The translations under genes were made by a program, and so were the position numbers. Shown here in pieces: positions 2,938-64,000 of a stretch of DNA of 64,000 bases. The notes below the pieces were generated by a model that saw only the letters and a program-made list of their open reading frames with translations, was not told the DNA's origin and searched no databases. The first letter of the stretch is position 1. The number at the start of each line of letters is the position of its first letter. This DNA comes from a virus. Its lineage: Duplodnaviria > Caudoviricetes. The DNA lies in the IMG/VR virus record IMGVR_UViG_3300042852_000025, positions 8,557-72,556 of that record. One strand, written 5' to 3'.

Positions 2938-3201
2938 ATGCACATACAAGAACTGCGTGCGCTGCTGGAAAAAGGCGTGACCCGCATAATCTTTCTGAAA
3001 GCCGACAACAGCGAGCGCACCCTGCTCGCGACCCTTCACCCCTCCCGCATGCCACCCCCGCCACCGGTTGAAGCCGGCGCGAAACCGGGGCGTCCGATGC
3101 CCGCCGGCAACCTGCTGGTATGGGACACCGAAGCCCAGGCCCTGCGCAGCTTTTGCGTCGACCGCTTGCTGGAGGTGCCGGTACTCATTGAGGAACTTTG
3201 A
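2938..3201 (+). CDS. stand-alone WYL-like (Sm/SH3 beta-barrel, WYL_2-type) protein
   Basis: F.KAD.SERT..ATL...VWDTE....RSF..DRL pattern; GAGG SD. Confidence 0.7.
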   Translation: MHIQELRALLEKGVTRIIFLKADNSERTLLATLHPSRMPPPPPVEAGAKPGRPMPAGNLLVWDTEAQALRSFCVDRLLEVPVLIEEL

Positions 3202-3202
3202 C

Positions 3203-3946
3203 ATGAACGCAATGGAGATCCGCGAGCAGGAACGCCGGCTCGCGGCGCTGACCTTTGACCAGTCGCCGTGCCGGGCCTTCCGGCTCTACCCGGATGACGG
3301 CGACGAGGACGAGTGGATCGACATCAAACCCGGCAAGGATGGGGAAGCCTTCCTGACCTACTGGATGCTCAACGAAGCCCGTCGCCGCTTGCGACTGGTG
3401 GGCCTGTCCGAAGTGGAGCCGGGCGTGTGGACCTTGGCGTTGCATTTCAATGGCGATCGCTGGGCGTCTTACACCCTGCGCGCCGTGGCCTGCAGCAGTT
3501 GGTCGGGTGTGCTGTTCCCGCTGGCGGATATGGTGAAGAATCTGCCGGAGGGGGTGGTGCTGGACCCCGAAGAACTCGACTTCGCCCTGGAGCTGGAGAC
3601 CGATCTGATCGGCCTCGCCCTGCCCGGGGCGAGCTGGACGGTGCTGTGGTTCCTCGCCAGCGAGTACAACGAATACGAAGTGGAACGGCTGGCCAAGAAG
3701 CTGGAGGACCCGTTTCAACGGACGGCCTACCTGCAGGAACGGAGCCCGTTGACCGGACTGCCCCGGCCGGCCCTGACCTTGGAACACCCCAACGCGGTCC
3801 CGCTGGAACCCATTCAGTTCCTGCCGCCGCAACTCGGAATCACGGTCGACCCCGACCAAGCCACCAGCAAGCGCCTGTTCAAAGAACACTGGATCTTGCG
3901 ACTGTTGAACCCACCTGAAAAGGATCACTGCCATGATGCCAAGTAA
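3203..3946 (+). CDS. hypothetical protein
   Basis: ATG 3203 with GAGG SD; typical codon usage. Confidence 0.7.
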   Translation: MNAMEIREQERRLAALTFDQSPCRAFRLYPDDGDEDEWIDIKPGKDGEAFLTYWMLNEARRRLRLVGLSEVEPGVWTLALHFNGDRWASYTLRAVACSSWSGVLFPLADMVKNLPEGVVLDPEELDFALELETDLIGLALPGASWTVLWFLASEYNEYEVERLAKKLEDPFQRTAYLQERSPLTGLPRPALTLEHPNAVPLEPIQFLPPQLGITVDPDQATSKRLFKEHWILRLLNPPEKDHCHDAK

Positions 3947-8194: not shown

Positions 8195-9704
8195 ATACTT
8201 TCAGCGCGCCGGCATCGAACGGTACCCATCGTTCGCCCCGTTCGTGCAACTCAAGCACACCCCATTCCAGTCGCAGGTCGAAGGCCTGAGCCTGTGCGTG
8301 CATTACCAGTGGTTCGGCCTGCTCGATGAGACCGGTGCGGGTAAGTCTATTCCCGTGGTGGGGGCGGCCCTTCACTACATTGGCCTGGGCAACAAGGTCG
8401 TGGTGCTGACGCTGGCCACCCTGATCTACCAGTTCGCCGAGTCGGTGACCGAAGAATTCCAGGGCGTCGACAAGTACGTGCGCGTCCATGTGCTGGATGA
8501 ACCGCCGGCCAAACGCGCCAAGCTGATCGAGCAGTGGGACAGCGAAGGCTGGCCAGAAATGATGGTCATGAGCTACGAGCTGTTTAGCCACCAGAAGCTG
8601 TGCAAGATCCTCAAGGAAAAGGGCTACGACGTGCTGATCACGGACGAGAGCCAGAAGTGGAAGTCACCGGAAAGCACGCTGGCCAAGCGCATTGGCGAGT
8701 ACGTGGGCGACCCGGCGCAGCCGGACACCGCGTTCTTTCCCATGACCGGCACGCCGATGCACACCTACATGAGCGATTGCTACACCCTGATCACCTTCAT
8801 GAGCCCGGGGGCGTACCTGTCCTACGACCACTTCTGTCGCCGGCACTGCCGTTACAAGCTGATCCGCTTGAAGGTGCCCAAGATCACCAGCAGTGGCAAA
8901 CGCATCAGCCGGGTCAAGGAACTGGTGGGCTACCAGCGGCACGCCGAGTTGTCGGCCAACCTGTATGCCCGCTGCCGGCGTGTGCTGAAAAGCCAGATCC
9001 CGGAACTGCGCGACCTGAAAGAGCCGATCATTACCGAAGTGCCGGTCAGGCTGAGCCCGGCGCACCGCGAGGCGTACCGCAAACTCACCATCGAACGCTT
9101 CATCGACTTCGGCGACGGCACCATTCTCTCGGCCCTGCAGGAGCAGGAGCTGCGCCAGAAGGTGTTGCAGATTGTCACCTGCCCGGAACTGTTCCTGCCC
9201 GAAGGCACCAAGATCGACAACCAGGTGCTCGCCACCTGCCGCGACCTGACCGAGGCGCACACCGCCGATTCCAAGGTGATCCTGTTCGTGAATTTCAGGG
9301 AGACCGTGGCGCGCTATGCCGAGTTCTTCGCGGACATGAACCCGGCGACCATGAACGGTGATCTGTCCGCGACCCAGCGCAAGGCGATGACCGAGAAGTT
9401 CCTGAATGACCCGACCTGCCGGCTGCTGGTGGCCAACCCACGATCGGCCGGGGCGGGCTTCAACTTCCAAGGGGTCAGTCACACGGTGATCTTTGCCGAA
9501 CCGACCGGCTCACCGGGGGAATTCAAGCAGGCGATGGACCGTGTCGTCAGGCCGGGCCAGCTCTGGCAGTGCAACATTTACGTGTTGAAGGCGCTGGAAA
9601 CCCTAGCGCCCAACGCCATCCGCAACATGCTCAGGCGTGATCAGGACATCGGGCAAGTGACCCTCGATCCTCGCACCCTGCGCCACTTTTACAACGTCGC
9701 ATAA
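8172..9704 (+). CDS. SNF2-like superfamily II helicase
   Basis: DETGAGKS, ITDESQ, MTGTP, SAGAGFNFQ and QAMDRVVRPGQ motifs. Confidence 0.9.
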   Translation: MTAPTLAEYFQRAGIERYPSFAPFVQLKHTPFQSQVEGLSLCVHYQWFGLLDETGAGKSIPVVGAALHYIGLGNKVVVLTLATLIYQFAESVTEEFQGVDKYVRVHVLDEPPAKRAKLIEQWDSEGWPEMMVMSYELFSHQKLCKILKEKGYDVLITDESQKWKSPESTLAKRIGEYVGDPAQPDTAFFPMTGTPMHTYMSDCYTLITFMSPGAYLSYDHFCRRHCRYKLIRLKVPKITSSGKRISRVKELVGYQRHAELSANLYARCRRVLKSQIPELRDLKEPIITEVPVRLSPAHREAYRKLTIERFIDFGDGTILSALQEQELRQKVLQIVTCPELFLPEGTKIDNQVLATCRDLTEAHTADSKVILFVNFRETVARYAEFFADMNPATMNGDLSATQRKAMTEKFLNDPTCRLLVANPRSAGAGFNFQGVSHTVIFAEPTGSPGEFKQAMDRVVRPGQLWQCNIYVLKALETLAPNAIRNMLRRDQDIGQVTLDPRTLRHFYNVA

Positions 9705-51004: not shown

Positions 51005-52708
51005 TTAGGCGATGTCGACCGTGACGCTGAAACCGGCGCTGGTCGTCGTGCTAACAACGAGGGGGAGGACTGGCACGGCCCCGGCCACGGCCACTGACGT
51101 GAGCACACCCGCAGTAGCTGTGAATTCGGCAGGGGGCAGCACCACCAGAGCGGTGAGCCTGGCTGTCACTGCGTTATGGCTGTAAGGGTTGCTCTTGAGT
51201 GCGATCCGCGTGGTCAAAACGGCCGCAGCCCCTGTCTGGTCCAGCAGGGCGGCGCGCAAACCCGCGATCGCCGCCGCCAGCCTGGCAGTCGCCACGCTTT
51301 GGCTACTGGCGTCGACCTTGAGCAGGATCTGCGTGCCGAGGCTTGCCGTTGCATTGGCTTGGCCAGCCAAGGCCGCGAGCAGCCCGATCTGTGTGGTGAG
51401 CCTTGCGGTCGCGGCGACCTGCGCACTCACCGTGGCGACCATGTTGTCGTGCGTGGTGAGGCGGGCCGTGGCTGCACTGACGCCGGAGGCACTCGCCTGC
51501 AGCGGAATCGCGGTGGTGAGCGCGGCGCCCACCGACACTTGGCCAGCGGCGGCGGCCTTTGGATTAATCACTGTGGTGAAGGCGGCACTCACCGTTGTCG
51601 AGCTACTGGCGGCGGCTTTCGGACGGATCGCCGTGGTGAAGGTTGCGCTAGCCGTTGTCGAGATACTGCCGTCAGCCTTGGTGTGGATCGCGGTGGTGAT
51701 GGCAGCACTGGCCGTCGCCGTACTGCTACCGGCGGCCTTCGGACGGATCGCCGTGGTAATGGCGGCGCTGAGAGTGGCTGCACTGCTACCGTTCGCTTTC
51801 GGACGGATCGCGGTGGTGAAAGCGGCACTCACCGTTGTCGTGCTACTGCCGTTCGCCTTCGGGTGGATTGCCGTCGTCAACGCCGAAGTTGTGGTTACGT
51901 GACCGGCAGCGTTCGCCTTCGGACGGATCGCCGTGGTCAACGCCGAAGTTGCGGTCACCTGGTCGGCAGCGTTGGCCTTCGGGTGGATCGCCGTGGTCAG
52001 CGCCGCCGTGCGCGAACACACGCTGCTCAGCGCCGCCGCCAAATGGGCGGCTGTGGATTTGAAGCTCAGGTTGTCGTCGAGGTCGAGGAAGCTCGCGTGG
52101 TTGCTGACCGTGGCGTTCAGCGTGGCGTTTTCTGTGGTGCCGTCGAAAAAGAAGTTCGCCGTATAGGCCGCGGCAGTGCCTTGCAAAAGCGCCGGCCATA
52201 CCTCGCAGATCAGCACATCGCCGTCGAGTGCGCTGACCGTCGTGCCGGGCGAGGTGGCAGAACCCCAGTCGACTTTCTCGGTGTTGGCTGCAGAGGGTGC
52301 TGCAGCGCCCGAGACAGCCGTGGTTGTCCCGGGACCGTCAAACAGCATTCCCACCACCGCACCGGTGGACGGGCGCCACACGTACAGGCAGGTAGACAGG
52401 TACTGGCCCAGGTTCATCTGAGTGTTTGACTGGGTTAACGCGACGTTCAACCGGAAAACGCAGCTCAAGGTTTGGTTGCCGTTCAACGGGGGGCTGGTGA
52501 ATATCCCCATGAACGGCAGTTGCAGGGAGGTGTTTGCCAGCGAGGTGCCGGACAGCGATGTCTGCGCGGTGCCGATGGTGGTATCCATCTTGCGCAGGGT
52601 GCTGGCGCCGGTGGCGCTCCAGCTCGGCGTAGCCGAGGACTGCTCACCTGTCGGAAAGGTGCCCGTCAGGGCGTGAGAGGCCGCGTGCAAATACAGTTTC
52701 GTTGTCAT
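51005..52708 (-). CDS. Ala/Thr-rich fibre-like virion protein with 20-aa repeats
   Basis: repeated LTTAI(R/H)PKA.. units. Confidence 0.75.
   Translation of the reverse strand: MTTKLYLHAASHALTGTFPTGEQSSATPSWSATGASTLRKMDTTIGTAQTSLSGTSLANTSLQLPFMGIFTSPPLNGNQTLSCVFRLNVALTQSNTQMNLGQYLSTCLYVWRPSTGAVVGMLFDGPGTTTAVSGAAAPSAANTEKVDWGSATSPGTTVSALDGDVLICEVWPALLQGTAAAYTANFFFDGTTENATLNATVSNHASFLDLDDNLSFKSTAAHLAAALSSVCSRTAALTTAIHPKANAADQVTATSALTTAIRPKANAAGHVTTTSALTTAIHPKANGSSTTTVSAAFTTAIRPKANGSSAATLSAAITTAIRPKAAGSSTATASAAITTAIHTKADGSISTTASATFTTAIRPKAAASSSTTVSAAFTTVINPKAAAAGQVSVGAALTTAIPLQASASGVSAATARLTTHDNMVATVSAQVAATARLTTQIGLLAALAGQANATASLGTQILLKVDASSQSVATARLAAAIAGLRAALLDQTGAAAVLTTRIALKSNPYSHNAVTARLTALVVLPPAEFTATAGVLTSVAVAGAVPVLPLVVSTTTSAGFSVTVDIA
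51280..52010. repeat. degenerate 60-bp tandem repeat (coding)
   Basis: TTCGG(A/G)(C/T)GGAT(C/T)GC(C/G)GT(G/C)GT recurs every 60 bp. Confidence 0.8.
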
Positions 52709-52747
52709 CCCTACACCTCGACGGCCCCTCGACGAAGGTGGAGTGGA

Positions 52748-53188
52748 TTAGTTGTCGATCTGGAACGTCAGGTCGCCGATGGCAAACACTGGAGCCGGGT
52801 CACCGTTGTTGACCGTCTTGCTGACCGTCAGTGCGCTGTAGAACAGCATGTTGCCCGAGGTCGACGCATCCATCACGGCCATACCGGTCACCGTGCCCCA
52901 GTTGGCGGTCGGTGTCGGAAAGGTGATCGCGGCGTTGTTCGACGTGGTGCCGCCGGTGCCGCTGGACGCGGTCGTGCTGCCCGCACTTTGCGTGCCGGCC
53001 CAGTTGGCCAGGCTGTTGGTCACCGCGACTCGCGCATAACTGCCGCCGGTGGCCTCGGTGCCCCCCGAGGTATCGGTAGGGTTCGCTGTAAACAGGGCGA
53101 TGTAGAGCGTGCTCGGAAAGGTGTAGGCCTGGTTACGAAACAGCTGGTCGATCAGCTTGTTTTCCAGGTAGTCGGTCATTGCGCCCAT
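52748..53188 (-). CDS. phage virion (fibre-associated) protein
   Basis: DYLENK..D..F...YIALFT..P...E..GG.YARV...ITFP.PT..WGTVT...DA.T.GN.L motif. Confidence 0.8.
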   Translation of the reverse strand: MGAMTDYLENKLIDQLFRNQAYTFPSTLYIALFTANPTDTSGGTEATGGSYARVAVTNSLANWAGTQSAGSTTASSGTGGTTSNNAAITFPTPTANWGTVTGMAVMDASTSGNMLFYSALTVSKTVNNGDPAPVFAIGDLTFQIDN

Positions 53189-53319
53189 GAAGCACCCCAA
53201 AGTAGGTCGTGTGAAGAACGCGGTCCTACGTTGGGGCCGCTTGCATTAAAGCGTAGGTTACGACCCCGGATTTCGCTTAAATTTCATAGCGCTAGGGGTC
53301 TAAACCAGCACTCTTGGAC

Positions 53320-53610
53320 CTACGCCGCGTGTTGCGCAGTGACCACCGCCGTGAGTTGGCCAACCCGTTCCGCCAGGCGGGACAGGCGCTGCTCAAAGAT
53401 GTGCTCAAACTCGCCTTTGCCTTCCTCGCGCAGGGCGGTCAGGGCGTCGGCCATGGTCATCGGTACGATCAACGCATGGGTGCTGTCAGGCAGGCTGGCC
53501 AGGTGGGCCTGGGCTTCGTCGCGGTGGGTGTAAACCCCCGCCACCACAACGGATTGACGTACTTCGTCCAGCCGGTAAAGCACCAGCGCTTCAAGGGTGA
53601 TTTCGCTCAT
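53320..53610 (-). CDS. hypothetical protein
   Basis: 96-aa ORF. Confidence 0.6.
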   Translation of the reverse strand: MSEITLEALVLYRLDEVRQSVVVAGVYTHRDEAQAHLASLPDSTHALIVPMTMADALTALREEGKGEFEHIFEQRLSRLAERVGQLTAVVTAQHAA

Positions 53611-53711
53611 GGGGAGACCTATGCGGATAATCAGCTCGGCCGTCTTCGGTTAGGTGAAACACTCGCGGCCTTGGGTTAAAGACTAGGCGAGGATCGCGAA
53701 AAAATTTTACG

Positions 53712-53731
53712 TTGCTTCGTTTTTGAGGCAA
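53712..53731. promoter_or_regulatory. palindromic operator (second copy)
   Basis: TTGCTTC-GTTTTT-GAGGCAA. Confidence 0.6.
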
Positions 53732-53902
53732 CAGAGGCCTCAAAAGCGGGTGTTTTGCCCCCCTTTGAAACTTTTTTCACTATTTTTTCGATTGTGCTGG
53801 GAACCTTTCCTGACAAGGCTTTGGCGCCATGGATTGTCCGACAAACGGTGTTTTTCGATGGCACTTTTGTGAATGTCAAGGGGGGTAAAGACGGATGCTT
53901 GG

Positions 53903-53932
53903 TTGTCTTTTTACCTAAATGCTCCGTATCCT
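53903..53932 (+). promoter_or_regulatory. sigma70-type promoter (candidate)
   Basis: TTGTCT-18nt-TATCCT. Confidence 0.5.
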
Positions 53933-53944
53933 ATTGACCGTAAA

Positions 53945-54057
53945 CGAAAAAGCCCCCGCTGTTTAGGCGAGGGCTTTTCGGACTGGTGGGTATTGCAAGT
54001 ACCGCCAGCCAAGGTCTCGGGGAATTCTGCTTAAACGGGCGGGATACGAGACCGGGT
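53945..54057 (-). ncRNA. putative ~110-nt antisense RNA
   Basis: promoter at 54093-54064; three stem-loops; ends in GCCCUCGC/GCGGGGGC-UUUUU terminator. Confidence 0.6.
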
Positions 54058-54063
54058 CTAAAA

Positions 54064-54093
54064 AGTATACGCGAAAATTGATCGCGTGTTCAA
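54064..54093 (-). promoter_or_regulatory. sigma70 promoter of antisense RNA
   Basis: TTGAAC-18nt-TATACT on the - strand. Confidence 0.65.
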
Positions 54094-54662
54094 CCATGCC
54101 CGTCTCACCCCCGTAACCCTTCCATTGCGCGTCTGGATCAAGATGGGGCGTTCGTTCGCCTATTGGGCCGCAGTGCGTAAAACCACCCACAAGGGGATCT
54201 TCTCAGGGTGGTCGGTATAGCCGGGAGGTACGAACCTGGAAACAGGTCGGGAAGGCAATGGCAGGGCGGCGTATTACCCAGACACAGGCGCCGTCGACTG
54301 TCCCAAAACCTACCCCCGCCGTGCGCCGAGAAGGGCCGAGGGCGCTTGTAACGCATAACCTCGAAAGCGCGGAACGCCAGCTGGGAGTGGGAGCCGGGAA
54401 ACCGGGATTTCCCCATTGCGTGGAGTTGTGTGAAAGGCCTTTTTTCAGGGGCTGGACGCAGGGGCTCGCACGCCAGTGGGAGCAAGAAGGGGGCCAGCTT
54501 TCGGCGGCCCTTGCAAGCGCTCTAACCCCCACCTCGGGGAACGAACAGGGGTCTGAACGATTTAATAATATTACGGTTAGCATCTGTTCAGATTTGTACG
54601 AGAAATGTAACGTGCTGTGCCCAGTACCAGGACAAATCCCAAAAACAACAAGGAGAAGGACA

Positions 54663-54857
54663 ATGTTGATTCTGACCCGCCGCATTCACGAAACCATCAT
54701 CGTTGGCGACGACATCCGCATCACAGTGCTTGGTGTCAGCGGCCTGCAGGTGCGCATCGGCATTGATGCGCCCAAGGGCATCGAGGTCCATCGCGAGGAA
54801 ATCTACAACCGCATTCAGGCCGAAAAAGCTGAACTCGCGAATGTGGACCTAGACTGA
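54663..54857 (+). CDS. csrA: CsrA/RsmA translational regulator
   Basis: [47 protein letters not shown]. Confidence 0.95.
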
Positions 54858-54887
54858 ACGGATAGCTTCATCACAGGGAGTCGCCGC

Positions 54888-55496
54888 TTGAACACGCCTA
54901 CCCAACACAGCACCCCGAAAGGGCTGTACCAGTACGTCGGCAAAGACGACACCTACGAGTTGCTGGGTGACTGCATTGGCGCCGGTACCGATCGGGGCCA
55001 CGACACCAAAATCTACCGCAACATCCACACCGGACAGTTGCACAGCCGGTTTGCCGATGACTTCGAAAACCGTTTGGTTCGTATCGGTGAGCGGGTTGAG
55101 TTTTCCTACAGTGAGGCTCCCCAACCCTACAACTCCGGTCATCAGATCGAAGGGGTGGACCGCTGCCACACCGTGCAGGAAATGATTCACTCCCTGCTCG
55201 ATGCACACCCGGCGGTGCTGAAATCGGGAGCCGCCCCGTTGATCGAGCAAGCCCGCACGGCCATCTTTCAGGCCCATCAGCTGATCGGTCTGATGGACGA
55301 CACCGTCGTTTCCAGCGGTGAAGACGACACCGATCTGCTGCGCGAAGCGCTTGAGCTTTTCGAGTACGTCACCTGGCACGATGGCCGCTACCGTCAAGAG
55401 TCCAGTTTGAAGTTTCAGACCCCGGCGCAGAAGTTGGTGAGCCGGCTGGCCGAACGCCTCGGGGTTGTGCCGTATCAGTCGCTCAAACAAGAGTAA
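54888..55496 (+). CDS. hypothetical mosaic protein
   Basis: GGGAG SD, TTG start; appears to join several small phage domains. Confidence 0.65.
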   Translation: MNTPTQHSTPKGLYQYVGKDDTYELLGDCIGAGTDRGHDTKIYRNIHTGQLHSRFADDFENRLVRIGERVEFSYSEAPQPYNSGHQIEGVDRCHTVQEMIHSLLDAHPAVLKSGAAPLIEQARTAIFQAHQLIGLMDDTVVSSGEDDTDLLREALELFEYVTWHDGRYRQESSLKFQTPAQKLVSRLAERLGVVPYQSLKQE

Positions 55497-55507
55497 GGGA
55501 CTACGAC

Positions 55508-55954
55508 TTGAAATCACTTCGCTGGTTTTTCACCTCGCATATTTTCTTAGCCCTGATCGCGGTCCAGGTTTTCGTCCAGGTGTGGTCGAAGGTCGTGGAC
55601 ATGCCGATCCTCGGGCTGTTCCTCACCCTCTGGCTGTCCTGGAAGCTCGGCTGTTTGGCGGGCTGGGCCGATTTCCAGCAACGTGGGATCGACCATGCGC
55701 GCTTGGTGGCCAAGGACATCGCCCAGCTGCAGGAGGGCTTCGAGGGTCAGCCCGAAGACGTGCGCCTGGCGATGGCCGTGCCGCATTCCCGGGCGCTGGA
55801 GTCGCTGACGTGGCTGCACCAACGGCTGGTCGCGCAGCTCAACACCCCCTACGTCCCCACGCGATTGCGTGACGTGCTGCCGTCGCCCACCCGTTGGCTG
55901 GCCCGCCGCCGCGAGCGCCAGATCATGGCGACGGACAAGGTGCAGCACCCCTGA
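55508..55954 (+). CDS. membrane protein
   Basis: two N-terminal TM segments. Confidence 0.6.
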   Translation: MKSLRWFFTSHIFLALIAVQVFVQVWSKVVDMPILGLFLTLWLSWKLGCLAGWADFQQRGIDHARLVAKDIAQLQEGFEGQPEDVRLAMAVPHSRALESLTWLHQRLVAQLNTPYVPTRLRDVLPSPTRWLARRRERQIMATDKVQHP

Positions 55955-55987
55955 ACCACGGACACAAAAAACAACAAGGATGCCCCC

Positions 55988-56392
55988 ATGGCTTTCAAAG
56001 TCCCCGAGCGTTTCCGCGTCACCGCCGGCATGTTGGCCAGCGCCAAAGCCACCCACGGCAATAACGGCGCGTTCATCATTCCGCTACGCGACCCCGCCAC
56101 CCAAGCCGTGTTGCAGGCGCGGGTGATTGCCTCCGATCAGGAATCGTGGGAACACGTCAGCGTCAGTTTCCCCAGCAAAACCCCGTCCTGGGACGTGATG
56201 TGTACGGTTAAGGACCTGTTTTGGGGGCCAAATGATTGGGTGCTGCAGTACCACCCGCCTGAGCGTGAGTATGTGAATTTTCATCCGCACTGCCTGCACA
56301 TGTGGCGCCCGATCGGCCAAACGTGCCCCGTCCCGCCAAGCCATCTGGTCGGCCCGCTGGCCCGCCGTACCCCTGAACCCAAGGAATCCTGA
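55988..56392 (+). CDS. conserved phage protein
   Basis: WEHVSVS...PSW..MC.VKDLFW...QYHPP..EYVN.HP.CLH.W. Confidence 0.8.
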   Translation: MAFKVPERFRVTAGMLASAKATHGNNGAFIIPLRDPATQAVLQARVIASDQESWEHVSVSFPSKTPSWDVMCTVKDLFWGPNDWVLQYHPPEREYVNFHPHCLHMWRPIGQTCPVPPSHLVGPLARRTPEPKES

Positions 56393-56394
56393 TC

Positions 56395-56844
56395 ATGGGC
56401 AACTGCACCGTATTCCACGATGAACTGCGTTTTCTCGTAACCGACCCCGACGCCCTGCATGTGTACGTGTTCCTGCGCGCCGAGGGGGATTGCCCGTTCA
56501 TGGTCAACGGCTGGCACTACAAGGAATTTCCAGCCTCTGTGACGACTTTCGATGTGTTGAAAATGATGGGTGACGGCAGTGAAAAGCCGATCAACTGGGA
56601 GCGCCAAGCACCAGGGCCAGTATGCACGGACTCCATTTTCAGCCCGAATGAATACGTGCCGGTCCTCGCTAAAGAGCTGAACGAATGGCAGCTCAGCACC
56701 GTCGCCGACGACCGCCTTAGCCCGGTGGATATTGCCGATCAGATGACCGCTCGACTGACCTCATCGCCAAATTGGCACAAAGCCTGCCCGCACTGCCGGG
56801 CGCACGACATGCTGATGCAAGCGCAAATGGCGCCGCGGGAATGA
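56395..56844 (+). CDS. hypothetical protein
   Basis: 149 aa, AAGGA SD, C-terminal CPHC. Confidence 0.6.
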   Translation: MGNCTVFHDELRFLVTDPDALHVYVFLRAEGDCPFMVNGWHYKEFPASVTTFDVLKMMGDGSEKPINWERQAPGPVCTDSIFSPNEYVPVLAKELNEWQLSTVADDRLSPVDIADQMTARLTSSPNWHKACPHCRAHDMLMQAQMAPRE

Positions 56845-57299
56845 ACCAACCGCCCGACACTTGGGCCGCTGAAATGCAGGCCCTGCAGGACCAGATCGAG
56901 CAGCTGGGGCTGGAGCTGGAGTGCGCCAGGCGCAACGAGAACGCCGCCACCTACTGGCAGGGGCAGGACGATGGGGTTAAGGGGGCAGCGGCCCGCTGGG
57001 CGGAAGCTTTGACCTGTGCGATCCCCAAGGCCGGCACCATGCAAGAGCCGCTGGAGTCGCTGTATCGGCGCACCGAAACGCTGCGCCTAGAGCGGGACAC
57101 CGCAGTCAGCGACCTCGCCTTGGCGCGGGGCCAAAACGACGGCTACCTCTACCTGCTGCACGCCGCGATGGCGGTGATCGAGAAGCACTGGGCGCCGCAC
57201 GATCCCATTTCGTCAAACGTGCGCGACGAACTCCTGGAACGCTTTGGCAAGTCGGCCGGTGCGGCGTGGGAGGCGGTGGCAGCGGGGCTGCGACGGTGA
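56841..57299 (+). CDS. hypothetical coiled-coil protein
   Basis: ATGA-coupled ORF. Confidence 0.6.
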   Translation: MNQPPDTWAAEMQALQDQIEQLGLELECARRNENAATYWQGQDDGVKGAAARWAEALTCAIPKAGTMQEPLESLYRRTETLRLERDTAVSDLALARGQNDGYLYLLHAAMAVIEKHWAPHDPISSNVRDELLERFGKSAGAAWEAVAAGLRR

Positions 57300-57517
57300 A
57301 CTACGCGATCGAGCAGCGCCTGCGCCTGATTGATTTCCTCCTGGAGCACTACGGCCACGTCGGGCGCCCCGAGCTGTGCGCCTATTTCGGGATCAGCCTG
57401 CCGTGCGCCTCGTTGGACCTCACGATGTACCGGGAGGCCAACCCGGGGAACATCGACTACGACTTCAAGAGCAAGCGGCGGGTGCGCAGCGCGACGTTCA
57501 AACCGCGCTATTCCTGA
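57296..57517 (+). CDS. CapW-like winged-HTH domain-only protein
   Basis: EQRLRLIDFLL..YGHV.R..L..YFGIS...ASLDL..Y....P.N..YD......FKP; no WYL domain. Confidence 0.8.
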   Translation: MNYAIEQRLRLIDFLLEHYGHVGRPELCAYFGISLPCASLDLTMYREANPGNIDYDFKSKRRVRSATFKPRYS

Positions 57518-57549
57518 CCGGCAAGACAACTATATAGAAGGAAGCGTCT

Positions 57550-57822
57550 GTGGAGACTGACACCGTCAAGGTGGGGCTGACCCCATGCGGAAGACCAAAG
57601 TTGACCTATGCCATGGAACAGCGAATGCGCTTCATCGACTTCGTGCTGTTCCACTTCGGCCACATCACCCGCAAACACCTGATCGAGTTCTTCGGCGTGA
57701 CCTCGGCCACTGCCACCCGCGATTTCGCCCTGTTTCATGAGCTGTACCCGGGCATGGCGCGGCTGAATCACATCACCAAACTGTACGTTCCGACCAAGGA
57801 GTACAGCCGCATTTTCCCGTAG
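57550..57822 (+). CDS. BrxR/CapW-like winged-HTH domain-only protein
   Basis: EQRMRFIDF.L...G.I.R..L...FGV....ATRDFA.F..L.P; no WYL domain. Confidence 0.8.
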   Translation: METDTVKVGLTPCGRPKLTYAMEQRMRFIDFVLFHFGHITRKHLIEFFGVTSATATRDFALFHELYPGMARLNHITKLYVPTKEYSRIFP

Positions 57823-57855
57823 TCCCGACACACCAACCATGCAAAGGAATAAGAC

Positions 57856-58146
57856 ATGGCAACGCGCATCTGGAAATGGCCCCTGCAAATGACCGCCCTG
57901 CAAGACATTGACCTGCCGATCGGCGCCAAGTACCTGGACGTGCAGCTGCAGGGCGACGAGCCGCAGCTGTGGTGTCTGTGCAATGCCAACGCGCCGCTGG
58001 AACCGCGCCGGCTGATGATCCACGGCACCGGCAACCCCATGCCCGACGACCCGGGCGCGTACCTGGCCACGTTCCAGACCGGCGCGTTCGTATGGCACCT
58101 GTTTGAAGTTCCACACCCCACCATCGAGCAAAGGAATGAAGCATGA
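57856..58146 (+). CDS. conserved phage protein
   Basis: IWK.PL...LP.GA..L.VQ.Q....LW...GTG..P....Y..T.Q....VWHLFE. Confidence 0.8.
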   Translation: MATRIWKWPLQMTALQDIDLPIGAKYLDVQLQGDEPQLWCLCNANAPLEPRRLMIHGTGNPMPDDPGAYLATFQTGAFVWHLFEVPHPTIEQRNEA

Positions 58147-58793
58147 ATACTGAAATTCTCGCGATACTCGACCGCAGCGGTTCCATGTGCAACATCGCGG
58201 AGGACGCGATCGGCGGCTACAACACCTTCCTCAAGGACCAGCAGGGGATCGAGGGCGCAGCGCGGATCACCGTGGTGCTGTTCGATGACCAGTACGAGCT
58301 GCTGTACGCCGCCACGCCGTTGGCCGAGGCCCAGCCACTGACCTCTATGACCTTCGTGCCGCGAGGCGGTACGGCGCTGATGGACGCCATCGGGCGCACC
58401 CTGCAGGTGGAAGGGGCACGGATCGCGGCCGAGGGCTGGGCCGAGAAAGTCATCGTCTGCATCACCACCGATGGTGGCGAGAACATGAGCAAGGAATTCA
58501 CCGCGCCGATGGTGCGCGAGCTGGTCACGGCGGCCGAGGCCAAGGGCTGGGCGTTTGTGTTCCTCGCGGCCAACCAGGACGCCTTCGCCACCGCGCAGTT
58601 CTACGGCATGAGCGGTGCCCACGCGCAGACCTTCACCGCCAACAGCGCCGGGGTGGGGCAGGCCTACGCCAGCATCAGCAACGTCACGCGCAGCTTGCGG
58701 TCAGGGCCGGAGGCCGCCGTGGAGGACGTGCTGGCGTTGCGCGATACAGCGGCCACCCCGAAGAAGAAAGCCAAAGCGCAAAAAGGTGCGTAG
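58143..58793 (+). CDS. von Willebrand factor A domain protein
   Basis: MIDAS DRSGSM, GGTALMDAIG, ITTDGGEN, FVFLAAN. Confidence 0.9.
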   Translation: MNTEILAILDRSGSMCNIAEDAIGGYNTFLKDQQGIEGAARITVVLFDDQYELLYAATPLAEAQPLTSMTFVPRGGTALMDAIGRTLQVEGARIAAEGWAEKVIVCITTDGGENMSKEFTAPMVRELVTAAEAKGWAFVFLAANQDAFATAQFYGMSGAHAQTFTANSAGVGQAYASISNVTRSLRSGPEAAVEDVLALRDTAATPKKKAKAQKGA

Positions 58794-59035
58794 TGAAGGC
58801 GCCCACGCGCTGCGGTTCGGAGTTGCGCAAGCTGATCGAGTTCGCCAAGGAGCTGGGCTTTACCTGCGAAACGACCGGCAGCAACCAGCTGTCCTTTCGC
58901 CGTCCGCACACGCGGTCGGTGTGGGCTTCGTGTACCCCGAGCTGTCACCACGCCCGCAAGAACACTCGCCACGACCTGCTGCGGGCCGTGCGCGAGGCGG
59001 AAGAACCAACCAACAACCAAGGGAATGAGCAGTGA
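58793..59035 (+). CDS. HicA-like protein
   Basis: LI..A...GF.....GS.....R....V..S.TPS...A..N....L.R. Confidence 0.6.
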   Translation: MKAPTRCGSELRKLIEFAKELGFTCETTGSNQLSFRRPHTRSVWASCTPSCHHARKNTRHDLLRAVREAEEPTNNQGNEQ

Positions 59036-59304
59036 GCGGGACCAAAGCATCACCGGAAATCGAATACCTGGGGCAGTTCCTGTACGTCCAACGCAAGGCC
59101 CTGCGCCTGACGTTGGACGAGGTGGCCACCGGAGCCGGCACGTCGAAATCCTACCTGTGGGAGATCGAGCACGGGCAGGCGTCACCCTCGTTCATGTTGG
59201 TCGCCCGCTTGTGCCAGGTCTTGTGCCTGGACATCGGCGGGCTGGCCGCCGGGGCGTTGAAAGTGGCTGAGGTGTGCGGGGAGGTCGAGCCGGTTCAACC
59301 ATAA
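59032..59304 (+). CDS. XRE-family HTH regulator
   Basis: LTLDEVA..AGTSKSYLWEIE.G...PS. Confidence 0.9.
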   Translation: MSGTKASPEIEYLGQFLYVQRKALRLTLDEVATGAGTSKSYLWEIEHGQASPSFMLVARLCQVLCLDIGGLAAGALKVAEVCGEVEPVQP

Positions 59305-59384
59305 ATCTCTCCCTGATACCCGTAAACATTGGGCAAAACCCACGTTTAACCGCGAATCTGTCCCTGATTGCCCCTTGAAAACCA

Positions 59385-59420
59385 CCCCCATTTTCCACGC
59401 TGAAACGTGGAAAATGGGGG
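59385..59420. repeat. perfect 15-bp inverted repeat
   Basis: CCCCCATTTTCCACG-CTGAAA-CGTGGAAAATGGGGG. Confidence 0.85.
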
Positions 59421-59532
59421 TTCCGACGTGATGAATCACATGAAGAACGCCCGATAGCGTATTAAAAACATACGCATACTTATGATCACATCACTTTGAT
59501 TCGGTTGGGGTTTTTTCCGGGGGAAAACCCCC

Positions 59533-59541
59533 TGTGGATAA
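59533..59541 (-). promoter_or_regulatory. DnaA box
   Basis: TTATCCACA consensus adjacent to iterons. Confidence 0.85.
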
Positions 59542-59542
59542 C

Positions 59543-59624
59543 ACCGCGAATCTGTCCCCCTTTGACCGCGAATCTGTCCCCTTTAAACCGCGAATCTGTC
59601 CCCTTTAAACCGCGAATCTGTCCC
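59543..59624. repeat. replication-origin iterons (4 x 22-bp period)
   Basis: ACCGCGAATCTGTCCC at 59543, 59565, 59587 and 59609; fifth copy at 59349; AT-rich DNA follows. Confidence 0.95.
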
Positions 59625-59718
59625 TGTACTTCGTAAAAAACCGTTATAAATCAATCTGTTGCGACGGCGAAAACAAGGTTTAAAACAAGAAAAACAAGCT
59701 CTAAAAGGACTGCTCGGG

Positions 59719-60429
59719 CTACACAATCAGTTCCAGTTGCTGTTCGCAGCTGGCTTTGGGACGGATTGTGAAGAGGAATCCGGCGATGGCGCGGCCATTG
59801 CGTCGAGGTTCTACGGTCACGGTCAGATCCGTGTGGCAGTTGACCTCTTCGATCGCCGGGTCCAGCACCCGTTTACGCAGGTCCTTGACGTTGGGGTACT
59901 TGTCGCCGAGGTCGAGCATGCCCCGCAGTTGCTCCAGGGTGCATTCTCGTGCTTTGAGCCGGATAAACTGGGCCATCAGCTCGTACAGGCGAATCGCGTA
60001 GAAGGTCGAAAGCTTGCCGATCTGACGCAACTGATACGAGGTGAATTCCTTGTTGAGCATGGTCAGGTGCGGAACCACCTGCGGGGAAAACCCCAGCTGG
60101 ATACAGCCGCGCCCTTCCATGTAGTCGCACAGGTAGACCCAGCGCATGCGCTTGACCAGCTTGCCGCCTTTGTAGTTGCGGATGTCCCGTGCATAGAGGC
60201 GGTTTGCCGCGTCTTTCATGGCGAAGTAAGTGCTTTTCGGGTCGGTCCCAAACACCTCAGAGAACACATCGGCCCGTATCATCAGCACCCCGTCCTTGGG
60301 CAGCGGTTTTCGGGGGTCGAGCATGGACGCGGCGAGTATCACCAGCCGCTTTTCATTAAGGGTCAGGGTGTGGGCGGCTTCGATCAGCCGGTTTGATTGG
60401 GTGACGATGTTGCGCAAGGCGGTGCTCAC
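59719..60429 (-). CDS. repA: plasmid replication initiator (Rep_3 family, pPS10 RepA-like)
   Basis: VTQSN.LIE..HTLTLNEKRLV..AAS..D.RKPLPKDG; FTSYQL..IG.LS.FYA.RLYEL..QF. Confidence 0.95.
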   Translation of the reverse strand: MSTALRNIVTQSNRLIEAAHTLTLNEKRLVILAASMLDPRKPLPKDGVLMIRADVFSEVFGTDPKSTYFAMKDAANRLYARDIRNYKGGKLVKRMRWVYLCDYMEGRGCIQLGFSPQVVPHLTMLNKEFTSYQLRQIGKLSTFYAIRLYELMAQFIRLKARECTLEQLRGMLDLGDKYPNVKDLRKRVLDPAIEEVNCHTDLTVTVEPRRNGRAIAGFLFTIRPKASCEQQLELIV

Positions 60430-60602
60430 AGGCGCTCCAGATCCGTAGGTAGATCCGGTAACGGTAGACAGGGACAGGGTCTAATGCAAGCCCCTACACC
60501 TAGCCGGAATTTCTCCCTGATCGACGCCCGTTTGCCCCAGCAGAACCGGGGCGTTCACGCACCATGCCGGATTCTCTCCCTGATAGAGGGTAGGGGAAAC
60601 CC

Positions 60603-61001
60603 CTACACCGGCCCCAGCAACACCGCCAACGCCTGCGCACAGCGGGCCTGAAAGGCTTGCTCCCCCAACGCCTTGCGCAGCTCGCGCAGCAGCACCAGGT
60701 CGACGCTGTTGGCCTCCAGCCGTTCGGCCTTGTGCAGCTCGGCGACATGGCGCAGCAGGCGCTGCTGGTCACGGCGCAGGTAACGCAGCTTGGCGGTCGC
60801 CCGGCTGTACCACTCGGAATCGGCAAACACCTGGTCGATCGCGCTGCGCCGGCGCACCACGTCGAGCTTGTTGCTCAGCTCGATGATCGTCGAATCCAGC
60901 TCGACGCGCAGGGTCTCGCACGCGGGCAGGGTGGCCGGCATTTCCAGCAGGTCGGGGCGGGGGCGTAGGGCGGGGTTGGCAGCGGGTGCTTGGGCATTCA
61001 T
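60603..61001 (-). CDS. hypothetical coiled-coil protein
   Basis: 132 aa; D.EW..RA..KLR motif. Confidence 0.7.
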   Translation of the reverse strand: MNAQAPAANPALRPRPDLLEMPATLPACETLRVELDSTIIELSNKLDVVRRRSAIDQVFADSEWYSRATAKLRYLRRDQQRLLRHVAELHKAERLEANSVDLVLLRELRKALGEQAFQARCAQALAVLLGPV

Positions 61002-61052
61002 GCGGGGGTCTTCGCTTTTGGTGGATGACCCCCTTGAGTTTAGGTCAGGTTC

Positions 61053-61322
61053 TCAGGCCTTCAGTGCATCCGGCACCAACTGTCCGCCCAGCGCTTCCCA
61101 CTTCCCGGGGTGCGCCTGTTCGACGGCGGCGTACAGCGTGCGCACTTCCATCACCGCTTCCTCGGCGCTCAGGTAGTCGTGAATACGCATCGCACCCAGC
61201 GCGACGATGTGCAGTTCGAGCACCAGCGCGGCGGCTTCCTCGCTGCTGTCGGGGAGGAAGTCCAGGCCGCGGCGCAGGTTGGCCAGGGTTTGTTGTTTGA
61301 GTTCTTTTTTGGTCAGGGTCAT
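61053..61322 (-). CDS. small helical protein (paralog array)
   Basis: AAGGA SD; shared ..HP motif. Confidence 0.7.
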   Translation of the reverse strand: MTLTKKELKQQTLANLRRGLDFLPDSSEEAAALVLELHIVALGAMRIHDYLSAEEAVMEVRTLYAAVEQAHPGKWEALGGQLVPDALKA

Positions 61323-61350
61323 TGCGGGGTGTCCTTGAGTTTAGGTCAGG

Positions 61351-61722
61351 TCAGTGGATCGTCCTCAAACCGCGATCACGGAATTCACGCAGTGCGCCTT
61401 TGGCCAGCTGCACCAGCTCGGCGTCGGTCTGCGGGGCACTGAGCACCTTGGCGATCACCTCGTTGAGAATCGACAGGTCGCCGCTGAGTGCGGTGTCGAG
61501 GCGCGGGTGGGCCGCCTGAAACGCCGCCACCAAGGCCGCCCGCATCCCTTGCGCCTCGGCCTCGGCGAGGTCGCCGTCATCACGCATCACGCACAGGGCG
61601 CGCAGGCCCATGTCCAACAGGGACACCGCCCCGACTTCGGTGCTGAGGGGCAGCAGCCGCAGGATCGAGGCCAGGCCTTCGTGCATCTTGTTTTGGTGTT
61701 CGGTGCGTTCGGCGGGGGTCAT
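61351..61722 (-). CDS. small helical protein (paralog array)
   Basis: ATG 61722, AAGGA SD. Confidence 0.7.
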   Translation of the reverse strand: MTPAERTEHQNKMHEGLASILRLLPLSTEVGAVSLLDMGLRALCVMRDDGDLAEAEAQGMRAALVAAFQAAHPRLDTALSGDLSILNEVIAKVLSAPQTDAELVQLAKGALREFRDRGLRTIH

Positions 61723-62156
61723 GTCGGGTCCTTGGGCGGCAGGCCCAGCGCGGCGCGGTTGGTCTGCTCCAGCGCCGAGCCGGGGTAGCCACCGTGTTCG
61801 TCGTAATTCTGGTGCCATTCGTGGTTGTCGCGCACCGCGTCTTCCAGCCCGCGGATGCGGTCCAGGTATTGGTTGGCCTCCCGCGCCTGCTCGACGATTC
61901 GCCAGCCCTGCCAGAGGTTGTGCTGCTGCAAGGTGGCCAGGTCCGGTGGGTCAGGCACGCGGCGTGGTCCGAAGTCCGGTCGCTCGCCCTCGCGGTCGTA
62001 GCTGTCCTGCAGGACGTTGACGCAGGCGCTGTCGCCACAGGAGGCGCAACTGGTCAGGCCGAACCAGGTGGTGGCTGGCTTGCCACAGCCGGCATCGCAG
62101 TGGCCGGTCACCGGCATTTTGTCGAAACCGGCCCGCCAGTTTTCGTCTTGGGTCAT
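61719..62156 (-). CDS. hypothetical zinc-finger protein
   Basis: CDAGC...CASCGDSAC. Confidence 0.65.
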   Translation of the reverse strand: MTQDENWRAGFDKMPVTGHCDAGCGKPATTWFGLTSCASCGDSACVNVLQDSYDREGERPDFGPRRVPDPPDLATLQQHNLWQGWRIVEQAREANQYLDRIRGLEDAVRDNHEWHQNYDEHGGYPGSALEQTNRAALGLPPKDPT

Positions 62157-62425
62157 TGTCCTGGCTCCGGCGGCCGGGTGTCGCGCAGCACCTGCTGGGT
62201 CAGGGCGTCGATCCGACCCACCGTGGTGGTTTGCAGCTCGGTCAGCAGGGCGTTGGCCTGATCCTCGGTGAGGGCGCCGGCCATGTGCAGGCCCTGGAGC
62301 AGCCCGAGGACATTGAAACGGCGGTTGCTCGCCGCCTGCGGGTTGTCGGCCAGGGTGACCAAGCGGATCTGCTGCCGCGCCTTGGCGTGCAGCTGGGTGC
62401 GTTCGTGGTCGGTGTATTCAGGCAT
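62153..62425 (-). CDS. small helical protein (paralog array)
   Basis: MPEYT start; GLLQGLHMAGALTEDQA. Confidence 0.7.
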   Translation of the reverse strand: MPEYTDHERTQLHAKARQQIRLVTLADNPQAASNRRFNVLGLLQGLHMAGALTEDQANALLTELQTTTVGRIDALTQQVLRDTRPPEPGQ

Positions 62426-62735
62426 GGCTGATGCTCTCCACATGCGTGCGCAGGGTCGCCACCAGGCCGCGCACCGGCACGGTGTCATAACGGGGGTCGA
62501 GGTAGGTGTCGAGGATGCCGGCCAGCAGCAGGTCGAGCATCTGCCGGGCCTTGTGCGCGTCCTCGGGGACGAACACCCCCAACTGCACCAGCACCTCCAG
62601 GCGGCCCTTGAGGCGGGCGGCTTCAGTGATGGCCAACAGCGGGTCTTTGAGGTCGGCGAAGGCGTGGAAGCGAGCGCCAAAGGTGGCCAGCGCCGCCAGT
62701 TGCGGGGCGGTGAGGGTCGGGGTGAATTCAGGCAT
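62418..62735 (-). CDS. small helical protein (paralog array)
   Basis: MPEFT start; GRLEVLVQLGVF.PEDA. Confidence 0.7.
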   Translation of the reverse strand: MPEFTPTLTAPQLAALATFGARFHAFADLKDPLLAITEAARLKGRLEVLVQLGVFVPEDAHKARQMLDLLLAGILDTYLDPRYDTVPVRGLVATLRTHVESISHA

Positions 62736-63033
62736 GGCTGAGACTCTCCAGCAGGCCGGGGTGTTCCCGTTCGTAGGCGCGGGCCAGGTCGGCCAGGCCG
62801 AGCTGGAAGCGTTCGTCCGTCAGCAGGCCGATGCCCCATAGCGCTTCCAGGTGTTTGACGATCTGCGTGTGCAGGTGCAGGGCGGCGTCGGCCGGGCGCA
62901 GGTGCAGGGTCTGCAACTGGCGGACGATCGCCACCAGCACCGCGGCGCGGTAGTCGGCGGTGCTGAGCGGGTCGCTCAGGTCAGGGGCGGGCAGTTGGGC
63001 AATGGTTTCGTCGAGGAACAAGACGCTCAGCAT
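62728..63033 (-). CDS. small helical protein (paralog array)
   Basis: LEALWGIGLLTDE..LGLADLARAYEREHP. Confidence 0.7.
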   Translation of the reverse strand: MLSVLFLDETIAQLPAPDLSDPLSTADYRAAVLVAIVRQLQTLHLRPADAALHLHTQIVKHLEALWGIGLLTDERFQLGLADLARAYEREHPGLLESLSHA

Positions 63034-63035
63034 GG

Positions 63036-63347
63036 TCAGTCGTCCAGGTCAGGGAGTAAGTCCAGCAGCGCGGGCTGGGCGCGCTCGTAGTGGCGGCGCA
63101 GGTCGGCCAGGCCGAGGTCGAGTTCGACCCGGGTGAGCATGCCAGCGTAGTGCAGGGTATAGAGGTGCATGGTGACCCGGGTGAACAACGCCAAGGCGTC
63201 CCGGGCGCCGAACTTCTCCAGCAGCAGCAGGCGCGTGGTGATCGCCAGCAACACGCGGTTGCGATACACCCTGCAGCCTCGCGGGGTGATCAGGTCGGGG
63301 CGGCCGAAACTTTCAATGTCGGCGTCGAGGGCGTCGCTGGGGGACAT
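63036..63347 (-). CDS. small helical protein (paralog array)
   Basis: AAGGAG SD; LYTLHYAGMLT..ELDLGLADLRRHYERAQP. Confidence 0.7.
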   Translation of the reverse strand: MSPSDALDADIESFGRPDLITPRGCRVYRNRVLLAITTRLLLLEKFGARDALALFTRVTMHLYTLHYAGMLTRVELDLGLADLRRHYERAQPALLDLLPDLDD

Positions 63348-63637
63348 GGCAGTGCGCTCCTTGCGGATGGTGGTGCGGAATAGGTGGGGGCCTGTGTCAG
63401 CGGTGAGGGAACCGACACGGCCGCCCGGGACGTACCTGCCTGGGGGTCGACCAGGCGAACGGCAGCGTCGGCGCACGGTAGCACGCGGGTTGCGGGGTGT
63501 GGAATAGGGGGCTTTGACTTGGTGCAGGGGGAAGGGTGAGTCGCCCGCCGGCCCGGAAAAACCTGCGGGCGACTCGCGGGGCCAGCGATCTGCCAATGCA
63601 CTGGCCCCGGTACGGCGACGTTAGCACGGGCGGGGAT

Positions 63638-63985
63638 TCAGGCAAAGGGCACTTCTTTCTTCGACGGCAGCCGGTCCATCAGCGTCGGGTGGTGGCGGTC
63701 GTACAGCGCCCGCAGTTCGCCCATCAGTCCGAGGGTCAGTTCGCCACTTAACAGGTCGTGGTTGTACAGCCGCAGCAGGCGCCCGCGGATGGCCTGGTAG
63801 AGGTCCAGCGCGGGCTGCTCGGCGAGGGTCGGCAGGTCCAGCAGGTCGAGGGCGGTTTGCGCCAGGTGCATGGTGCGGAAGTCGGAGCGGCCGAGGGCGC
63901 AGCCGCCTTCTTCCAGGTCGCGGGTGGCCAGTTCGTCGACCATCAAGGCGAGTAGGTCGCGGGTGGCGGGGTTGGGGATATCCAT
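63638..63985 (-). CDS. small helical protein (paralog array)
   Basis: GGAG SD; LLRLYNHDLLSGE..LGLMGELRALYDRHHP. Confidence 0.7.
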   Translation of the reverse strand: MDIPNPATRDLLALMVDELATRDLEEGGCALGRSDFRTMHLAQTALDLLDLPTLAEQPALDLYQAIRGRLLRLYNHDLLSGELTLGLMGELRALYDRHHPTLMDRLPSKKEVPFA

Positions 63986-64000
63986 GGGGGCGACTCCGGG

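Follow-up and report, generated by a model that had tools for sequence, protein, structure and literature searches.

Two small tandem genes in a virus of the Caudoviricetes (Duplodnaviria) encode, judging from their sequence, a phage-borne and sensor-less new variant of the DNA-binding domain of the regulators CapW and BrxR. The genes lie in a stretch of 64,000 nucleotides (positions 8,557 to 72,556 of the IMG/VR virus record IMGVR_UViG_3300042852_000025), the whole of which is called the window here; coordinates without a prefix are window positions. The WYL repressors (CapW, BrxR and their relatives) control many defence systems, and single-stranded DNA releases them. We propose that the two proteins, named wHTH1 and wHTH2 for their winged helix-turn-helix (wHTH) fold, occupy the operators of WYL-controlled defence islands and keep these islands off, a reading to which we give a probability of about 0.4. 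An earlier note on this DNA had described them as candidate super-repressors of host defence, and the analysis leaves this plausible. The two genes are:

57296..57517, plus strand: wHTH1, 73 amino acids (aa), a stand-alone CapW/BrxR-type winged helix with the CapW-like recognition helix ISLPCASLDL.

57550..57822, plus strand: wHTH2, 90 aa, with a 16-aa N-terminal tail and the BrxR-like recognition helix VTSATATRDFA.

The start of wHTH1 is the GTG at 57296, which overlaps the stop of the upstream open reading frame (ORF) as GTGA. The longest-ORF rule would place the start at 57266; the majority of homologues start with MNYA... or MSxNYA.... The GTG start of wHTH2 is preceded a few bases upstream by a ribosome-binding site (GAAGGAAG). 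The two proteins are paralogs (22 of 51 residues identical, 43%, E 1e-17).

Searches of the PDB with phmmer returned five matches for each protein, and all five were CapW or BrxR chains in both cases (wHTH1: 7tb5, E 3e-9; 7tb6, 3.6e-7; 7qfz, 1.3e-6; 9c5g, 3.3e-4; 7t8k, 0.2; wHTH2: 7qfz, E 2.6e-6; 7tb5, 2e-5; 7tb6, 3.3e-5; 7t8k, 0.074; 9c5g, 0.13). The alignments spanned chain residues from about 4 to 92 of chains of roughly 290 aa, corresponding to the N-terminal winged helix only. The AlphaFold2 model of wHTH1 (predicted local distance difference test, pLDDT, 94.6) consists of three helices and a two-strand wing. When this model was compared with the PDB by Foldseek, as the earlier note had proposed, the 12 best matches listed were all BrxR or CapW (query-based TM-score, TMq, 0.87-0.96; root-mean-square deviation 0.6-0.9 Å), and the next match was a generic viral winged helix at E 1.6e-2. 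Among the BFVD structures, a Pantoea phage protein was the sole match at E ≤ 1e-3. General family models were less informative: a Pfam copy that did not include PF26109 gave only HTH_DeoR at 0.025, under its cut-off, for the two proteins, the best PHROGs value was 0.2, and NCBIfam gave only weak Rex and UlaR matches. PF26109 is precomputed on every homologue in the protein database. The earlier note had claimed two complete winged helix-turn-helix (HTH) genes of the CapW/BrxR family, and the sequence and structure matches bear this out.

Both ORFs end at the domain boundary, as that note had read them. No WYL domain (PF13280) was found in the whole 72,556-base record; the same search was positive in 7 of 14 control genomes. 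There is likewise no sequence beyond the winged helix in either protein in which a WCX domain could lie, the next ORFs being wHTH2 and a DUF7352 gene respectively. The differing helices noted earlier were also confirmed: ISLPCASLDL of wHTH1 is nearest to ISVPQASLDI of Pseudomonas aeruginosa CapW, VTSATATRDFA of wHTH2 is nearest to VAPSVATQDFA of Escherichia fergusonii BrxR, and 11 of the 15 positions of each helix agree with full-length representatives of a single helix class.

CapW (7TB5 from P. aeruginosa PA17, 7TB6 from Stenotrophomonas maltophilia and 9C5G from Rhizobium leguminosarum) is a wHTH-WYL-WCX repressor of the cyclic oligonucleotide-based anti-phage signalling system (CBASS). wHTH1 resembles it in sequence (7tb5, 36% identity) and in fold (TMq 0.94), shares the helix pattern IS.P.ASLD and has R24, S34 and S39 in place of CapW R32, S42 and S47. 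Unlike CapW, neither protein has a WYL or WCX domain, hence neither has a single-stranded DNA sensor or a domain-swapped dimer; moreover, wHTH1 has a Cys at the Gln45 position and an altered alpha1 surface (Y3, R10, L15, H18, Y19), and the pair is phage-encoded and does not adjoin a defence operon. BrxR (7QFZ from E. fergusonii, 7T8K/7T8L from Acinetobacter) is a WYL regulator of bacteriophage exclusion (BREX) and other defence islands. It is the top Foldseek match of the wHTH1 model (TMq 0.96), and E. fergusonii BrxR is the best PDB sequence match of wHTH2, with which it has the helix pattern A-T-x-D-F-A in common. The two proteins differ from BrxR, too, in the missing WYL and WCX domains, and their matches to 7t8k are weak. 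Small phage HTH repressors of the Aca and Cro/CI types also have no ligand sensor; they belong to unrelated HTH families, to which no homology was detected, and act on phage promoters.

Proteins of this stand-alone type form a family of their own. Word-indexed searches gave 33 clusters of wHTH1 relatives (72-92 aa) and 15 clusters of wHTH2 relatives (69-91 aa). A profile built from 33 stand-alone sequences (A1) and scored against 1.84 billion representatives gave 2137 matches at E ≤ 1e-3, 531 of them at E ≤ 1e-10. Among the best 150 of the 2137 matches, 76 end no more than 12 residues past the domain, 28 continue for 150 residues or more, as full-length proteins of about 290-305 aa, and 46 are intermediate, mostly fragments. 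The stand-alone proteins occupy the top of the ranking: 57 of the best 61 matches end within 12 aa of the domain, none of these 61 is full length, and the first full-length protein comes at rank 65. Pattern scans confirmed by tblastn added 40 loci on viral contigs and 8 loci in species-representative bacterial genomes. The ORF ends directly after the domain in 47 of these 48 loci, and the 48th (L048) is an ordinary 304-aa regulator. Three of the eight genome loci are identical to three of the viral-contig loci in winged-helix sequence and gene map. Thus the survey of HTH-only homologues suggested in the earlier note finds members at 40 loci on viral contigs, in 7 bacterial genomes and in one cultured phage. 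The tandem pair was found again in six close relatives (L001-L006), and two copies also occur in L012 and L019.

The ratio of non-synonymous to synonymous substitution rates (dN/dS) was 0.16-0.51 over both genes in 12 pairwise orthologue comparisons (wHTH1, 0.16-0.51 against three orthologues; wHTH2, 0.16-0.42), and the recognition helix of wHTH2 was invariant in four orthologues. Purifying selection acts on both genes, which are intact. These values and the architecture indicate that the stand-alone proteins are an old, separate and selected lineage, not debris.

Residue counts by column were compared between 76 stand-alone and 28 full-length representatives, the latter being biased to those most like the stand-alone profile. 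Both groups keep R8, I12, D13, G20, R24, F31, S34, Q37, A38, S/T39, D41, Y45, P50, N52 and Y62. In S. maltophilia CapW, the R32A mutation and an S42/Q45/S47 triple mutation abolished detectable DNA binding (PMC9122588). The positions aligned to CapW R32, S42 and S47 are R24, S34 and S39 in wHTH1 and R, T and T in wHTH2, and R24 is present in 67 of the 76 stand-alone representatives; by this alignment, the DNA-contact residues of CapW are largely retained in both proteins. The two groups differ in consensus at positions 3 (Y in stand-alone, W in full-length proteins), 10 (R/E), 15 (L/R), 18 (H/W), 19 (Y/E), 64 (R/A) and 70 (R/P). At the five of these that form the alpha1 signature (3, 10, 15, 18 and 19), wHTH1 has Y, R, L, H and Y, and wHTH2 has Y, R, V, H and F. 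The stand-alone proteins include the two helix classes seen in full-length members (PQAS.D and A.A[TS]RD), with wHTH1 and wHTH2 representing one each. In a tree computed without the helix columns, the architecture label required 3 changes compared to a mean of 24.9 in shuffled labels (none of 500 shuffles was as low), while helix class required 16; the trees use 63-75 columns (63 without the helix) and most forks are poorly resolved, making the change counts rough. The architecture therefore looks old and stable, and the DNA-reading helix appears to switch often.

The earlier note had cautioned that loss of the dimerisation domains may weaken binding. This caveat is softened by the model of a wHTH1 homodimer, which supports pairing and falls short of showing it. 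The homodimer scored 0.57 compared to 0.14 for the best control. Of 30 proteins solved as one-chain pairs, 20 reached that mark, as did 1 of 23 proteins with a single-chain structure. Three runs agreed in at least 90% of contacts with a partner pLDDT of at least 90. The modelled interface comprises residues 11, 14-15, 17-19, 25-26 and 29-30 on alpha1/alpha2, and takes in the clade-specific positions 15, 18 and 19. The variant represented by wHTH1 and wHTH2 probably self-dimerises and binds DNA.

These results are consistent with the following mechanism. wHTH1 and wHTH2 would be functional, ligand-blind DNA-binding proteins that evolved as stand-alone winged helices in phages. Each would most likely pair with itself via alpha1/alpha2, so that, as in the CapW and BrxR dimers, a pair of recognition helices would face a palindromic operator some 20 bp long. 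As there is no WYL/WCX sensor, single-stranded DNA could not release them. They would bind operators of the CapW/BrxR type at defence islands under WYL control, whether these lie on the host chromosome or are carried by other mobile elements, and would maintain repression of the islands under conditions (DNA damage, prophage induction or infection) that would normally lift it. Two paralogs would cover both helix classes of the full-length family. We also advance, more tentatively, a wider form of this proposal: a dedicated and diversifying phage family whose homodimers hold CBASS, BREX, PsyrTA-type and other systems off when single-stranded DNA would release the resident repressor, and in which tandem paralogs widen the operator range. 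Dimerisation is taken here from the model; we infer that the proteins act as repressors and, most of all, which operators they would occupy. A single repeat is reported to be enough for binding and repression by BrxR (PMC9122601), which lends some credibility to the idea that a smaller protein could occupy an operator.

The seven bacterial genomes carrying a stand-alone member were searched with a profile for full-length homologues (whole genome, E ≤ 0.01). Two of the seven, Dechloromonas (G002) and a metagenome-assembled genome (MAG) of Frateuria (G005), have one. In Dechloromonas, PsyrT (4e-274), PsyrA and a type I restriction-modification system come after the resident gene; in Frateuria, an E1-E2/JAB protein and a NERD helicase flank it; both settings are defence islands. 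In Frateuria, the prophage copy and the resident regulator have the identical helix core GIS.PQASLDL; in Dechloromonas, both belong to the helix class A.A[TS]RD[FL]. At a distance of 27 nt, the start of the resident Frateuria gene is preceded by the perfect 17-bp palindrome CGTATAGTCACTATACG (L056:1407-1423, equivalent to G005:C15:73463-73479), a candidate operator of which that genome has no second copy even when up to 3 mismatches are allowed. The findings in both lysogens lean to the proposal that the phage proteins mimic resident regulators, as anecdotal points from two genomes and two common helix classes. The islands headed by a WYL regulator in these prophage-carrying genomes are at L063:7905-11389 and L062:3465-10592 (Dechloromonas and Frateuria).

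Stenotrophomonas phage Sonora was the only one of 50,697 cultured phage records with a member of the family (tblastn). Its gp088 is annotated as a hypothetical protein of 75 aa; it has 59.7% identity to wHTH1, belongs to the same stand-alone clade, and its helix ISTPQASDDL is close to ISAPQASADL of S. maltophilia CapW. Sonora belongs to the family Mesyanzhinovviridae and has a single copy, differing in this from the tandem pair of the window. The gene sits among about 27 small co-directional genes, nearly all hypothetical, at the right end of the genome (L058:1-9961).

The viral record has 72,556 bases (CheckV completeness 89%) and encodes a primase, helicases, a DNA polymerase, an SbcC-like protein, tail proteins and a large terminase. 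An ORF at 3068-3946, picked as a possible parA, had no PHROG match, and a near-identity DNA search with window positions 52000-64000 found nothing among cultured phages or plasmids. The wHTH pair is set in a run of tightly packed, co-directional small genes, in the order CsrA-domain ORF, DUF7694, two ORFs of no family, a helical ORF, wHTH1, wHTH2, DUF7352, a vWA-like protein, an 80-aa ORF and an XRE HTH. The immediate neighbours are:

56772..57299, plus strand: upstream helical ORF of no recognised family, with the probable start at residue 24 (about 56841), translationally coupled to wHTH1.

57856..59304, plus strand: downstream block, co-directional, which accompanies wHTH2 in relatives and comprises the next four genes.

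57856-58146, plus strand: DUF7352.

58143-58793, plus strand: vWA-like protein.

58793-59035, plus strand: 80-aa ORF.

59032-59304, plus strand: XRE-type HTH of 90 aa, the last gene of the block.

The clusters of the downstream block are common to 8-9 sources (the window plus loci). Among ten neighbours, the PADLOC defence models matched only the XRE protein (HTH_VI 3.4e-9, capH 2e-7), matches that may reflect generic XRE similarity, and wHTH1 and wHTH2 themselves had no PADLOC match. CapH is the cleavable repressor of the CapH/CapP pair of defence regulators; no CapP-like gene was seen among the scanned neighbours. In the gap 3' of the XRE gene, at 59384-59421, a perfect inverted repeat of 16 nt, with 6 nt between its arms, is a candidate terminator or operator. 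At the other end of the run, the CsrA domain (Pfam, 2.8e-23) is confined to residues 136-187 of the longest ORF at 54258-54857; the true gene is therefore probably a short csrA/rsmA-like one near 54660-54857.

A conserved partner gene was considered for the family and rejected, as no cluster apart from the family itself was common to more than 11 loci. One cluster of 31 loci was set aside, because it runs on the opposite strand over the wHTH gene and was taken to be an antisense shadow. In 34 non-redundant loci (the 48 minus 14 near-duplicates, close relatives or the full-length L048; crude gene caller), the flanking ORFs of at least 90 aa (65 upstream, 62 downstream) were mixed phage genes with no constant partner: RVT_1 (three), integrase (three), three kinds of DNA methylase, ParB, RdgC, D5_N, NinX and others. 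All three RVT_1 domains were among the 65 upstream ORFs. The genes lie in accessory or early arrays.

Several points weigh against the proposal that wHTH1 and wHTH2 hold defence islands off. No full-length homologue was found in five of the seven lysogens at E ≤ 0.01, some of these genomes being incomplete MAGs. The CapW Gln45 position is Cys in wHTH1 and Thr in wHTH2; it is Q in 22, A in 3, N in 2 and S in 1 of the 28 full-length representatives, and Cys or Thr in none, so the two proteins may have specificities that no resident regulator shares. Cultured phages rarely carry the family (Sonora is the single record), and no protein of at least 159 aa both shared words with wHTH2 and reached E ≤ 1e-3, which is weak evidence. 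Of the small phage HTH proteins characterised so far, most have phage DNA as their target. In L006 (5470-6222), a single open frame of 250 aa joins a homologue of the helical ORF to the wHTH1 orthologue, which hints at a partner-dependent function in that lineage. The homodimer pass may be partly model memory, since CapW/BrxR dimers were solved with their heads side by side (PMC9122588). Finally, derepression of a WYL-controlled BREX is reported not to be needed to block a first infection (10.1101/2025.11.13.688357).

Of the alternatives, the one that survives best is that both proteins regulate the transcription of the phage itself: they would be constitutive repressors or activators on phage operators, timing early or accessory genes such as the DUF7352-vWA-XRE block, and would share only ancestry with the CapW/BrxR head. 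This is possible, and in our view only a little less probable than the proposal above. It agrees with the usual action of small phage HTH proteins, with the persistence of the family in the five lysogens that have no resident full-length homologue, with the location of the genes inside co-directional operons, with the retention of the same downstream block beside the wHTH2 type in the window and its relatives (8-9 sources), and with the variants at contact position 37 (C37 in 9 and T37 in 16 of the 76 stand-alone proteins, neither in any of the 28 full-length ones). The negatives on the other side are weak. A recurrent palindromic 7-nt half-site was found once in the 64-kb window compared to 0-2 times in ten shuffles (which preserved 2-base blocks, not exact dinucleotide content); this lack of excess gives no sign of a phage-internal regulon, though imperfect or single operators would be missed. 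Promoter-like sites in the window were not in excess either (3 compared to 2.0 in shuffles). Near the genes only single inverted repeats were seen and no operator-like repeat, outside close relatives there is no conserved neighbour as a possible regulated target, and the pair is placed in a co-directional operon and not at a divergent-promoter immunity locus.

In a second alternative, wHTH1 would in this lineage contribute DNA binding to a two-part protein, and the upstream helical ORF would supply oligomerisation or a new input replacing WYL/WCX; the pair would thus not be truly sensor-less. This reading draws on the GTGA overlap of the two genes and on the in-frame fusion of L006, which has 58% identity over 160 aa to the helical ORF of the window (equivalent region 56772-57517). 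In the window itself, the two genes overlap in different frames. The fusion occurs in one of the six related tandem-pair loci, the N-terminal extension in L001-L003 is out-of-frame junk, and an internal ATG just before the winged helix of L006 leaves a separate product possible. Most members of the family have no such neighbour. The helical ORF belongs to no recognisable family (no PDB match better than E 0.63; nearest Atlas clusters unnamed viral proteins at 0.89-0.90, within chance range). We consider this alternative unlikely.

Poisoning of resident CapW/BrxR dimers by head-to-head pairing, which would derepress defence and perhaps protect the lysogen from superinfection, is very improbable. 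The predicted alpha1/alpha2 interface would allow it, and the heads are adjacent in CapW/BrxR dimers (PMC9122588); however, the interface positions 15, 18 and 19 are L, H and Y compared to R, W and E in full-length proteins, which argues for self-pairing, and five of the seven lysogens have no resident full-length homologue to pair with. Decay of a full-length capW/brxR gene, for which nothing but the truncated architecture speaks and which the earlier note had named as fatal to its proposal, is excluded by the dN/dS of 0.16-0.51 in the 12 comparisons, the same stop position in 47 of 48 loci, the distinct clade signature, the confident fold and the lack of any WYL remnant in the record.

The note's view that such a mechanism is undescribed agrees with the full-text literature searches: the papers considered (including PMC9122588, PMC9122601, 10.1101/2025.11.13.688357 and the BREX comparison PMC12839542) describe neither stand-alone CapW/BrxR heads in phages nor counter-defence at the level of transcription by means of such heads. 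The proposal fits a report that derepression primes survivors against inhibitor-carrying phages (10.1101/2025.11.13.688357): blocking this priming would benefit the phage population and an inducing prophage.

If wHTH1 and wHTH2 do occupy the same operators as the resident regulators, they would represent a new class of counter-defence, acting on transcription by regulator mimicry; to our knowledge, the phage counter-measures described so far target defence proteins or their signals and not their transcriptional switch. They would also offer a simple means of keeping WYL-controlled islands locked in the off state, and the variation in their helices would report naturally on the operators that matter. 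The cultured phage Sonora is a ready system for testing the family. If the proteins regulate phage genes instead, they would show that the CapW/BrxR head can work alone with a remodelled alpha1, which bears on the evolution of WYL regulators.

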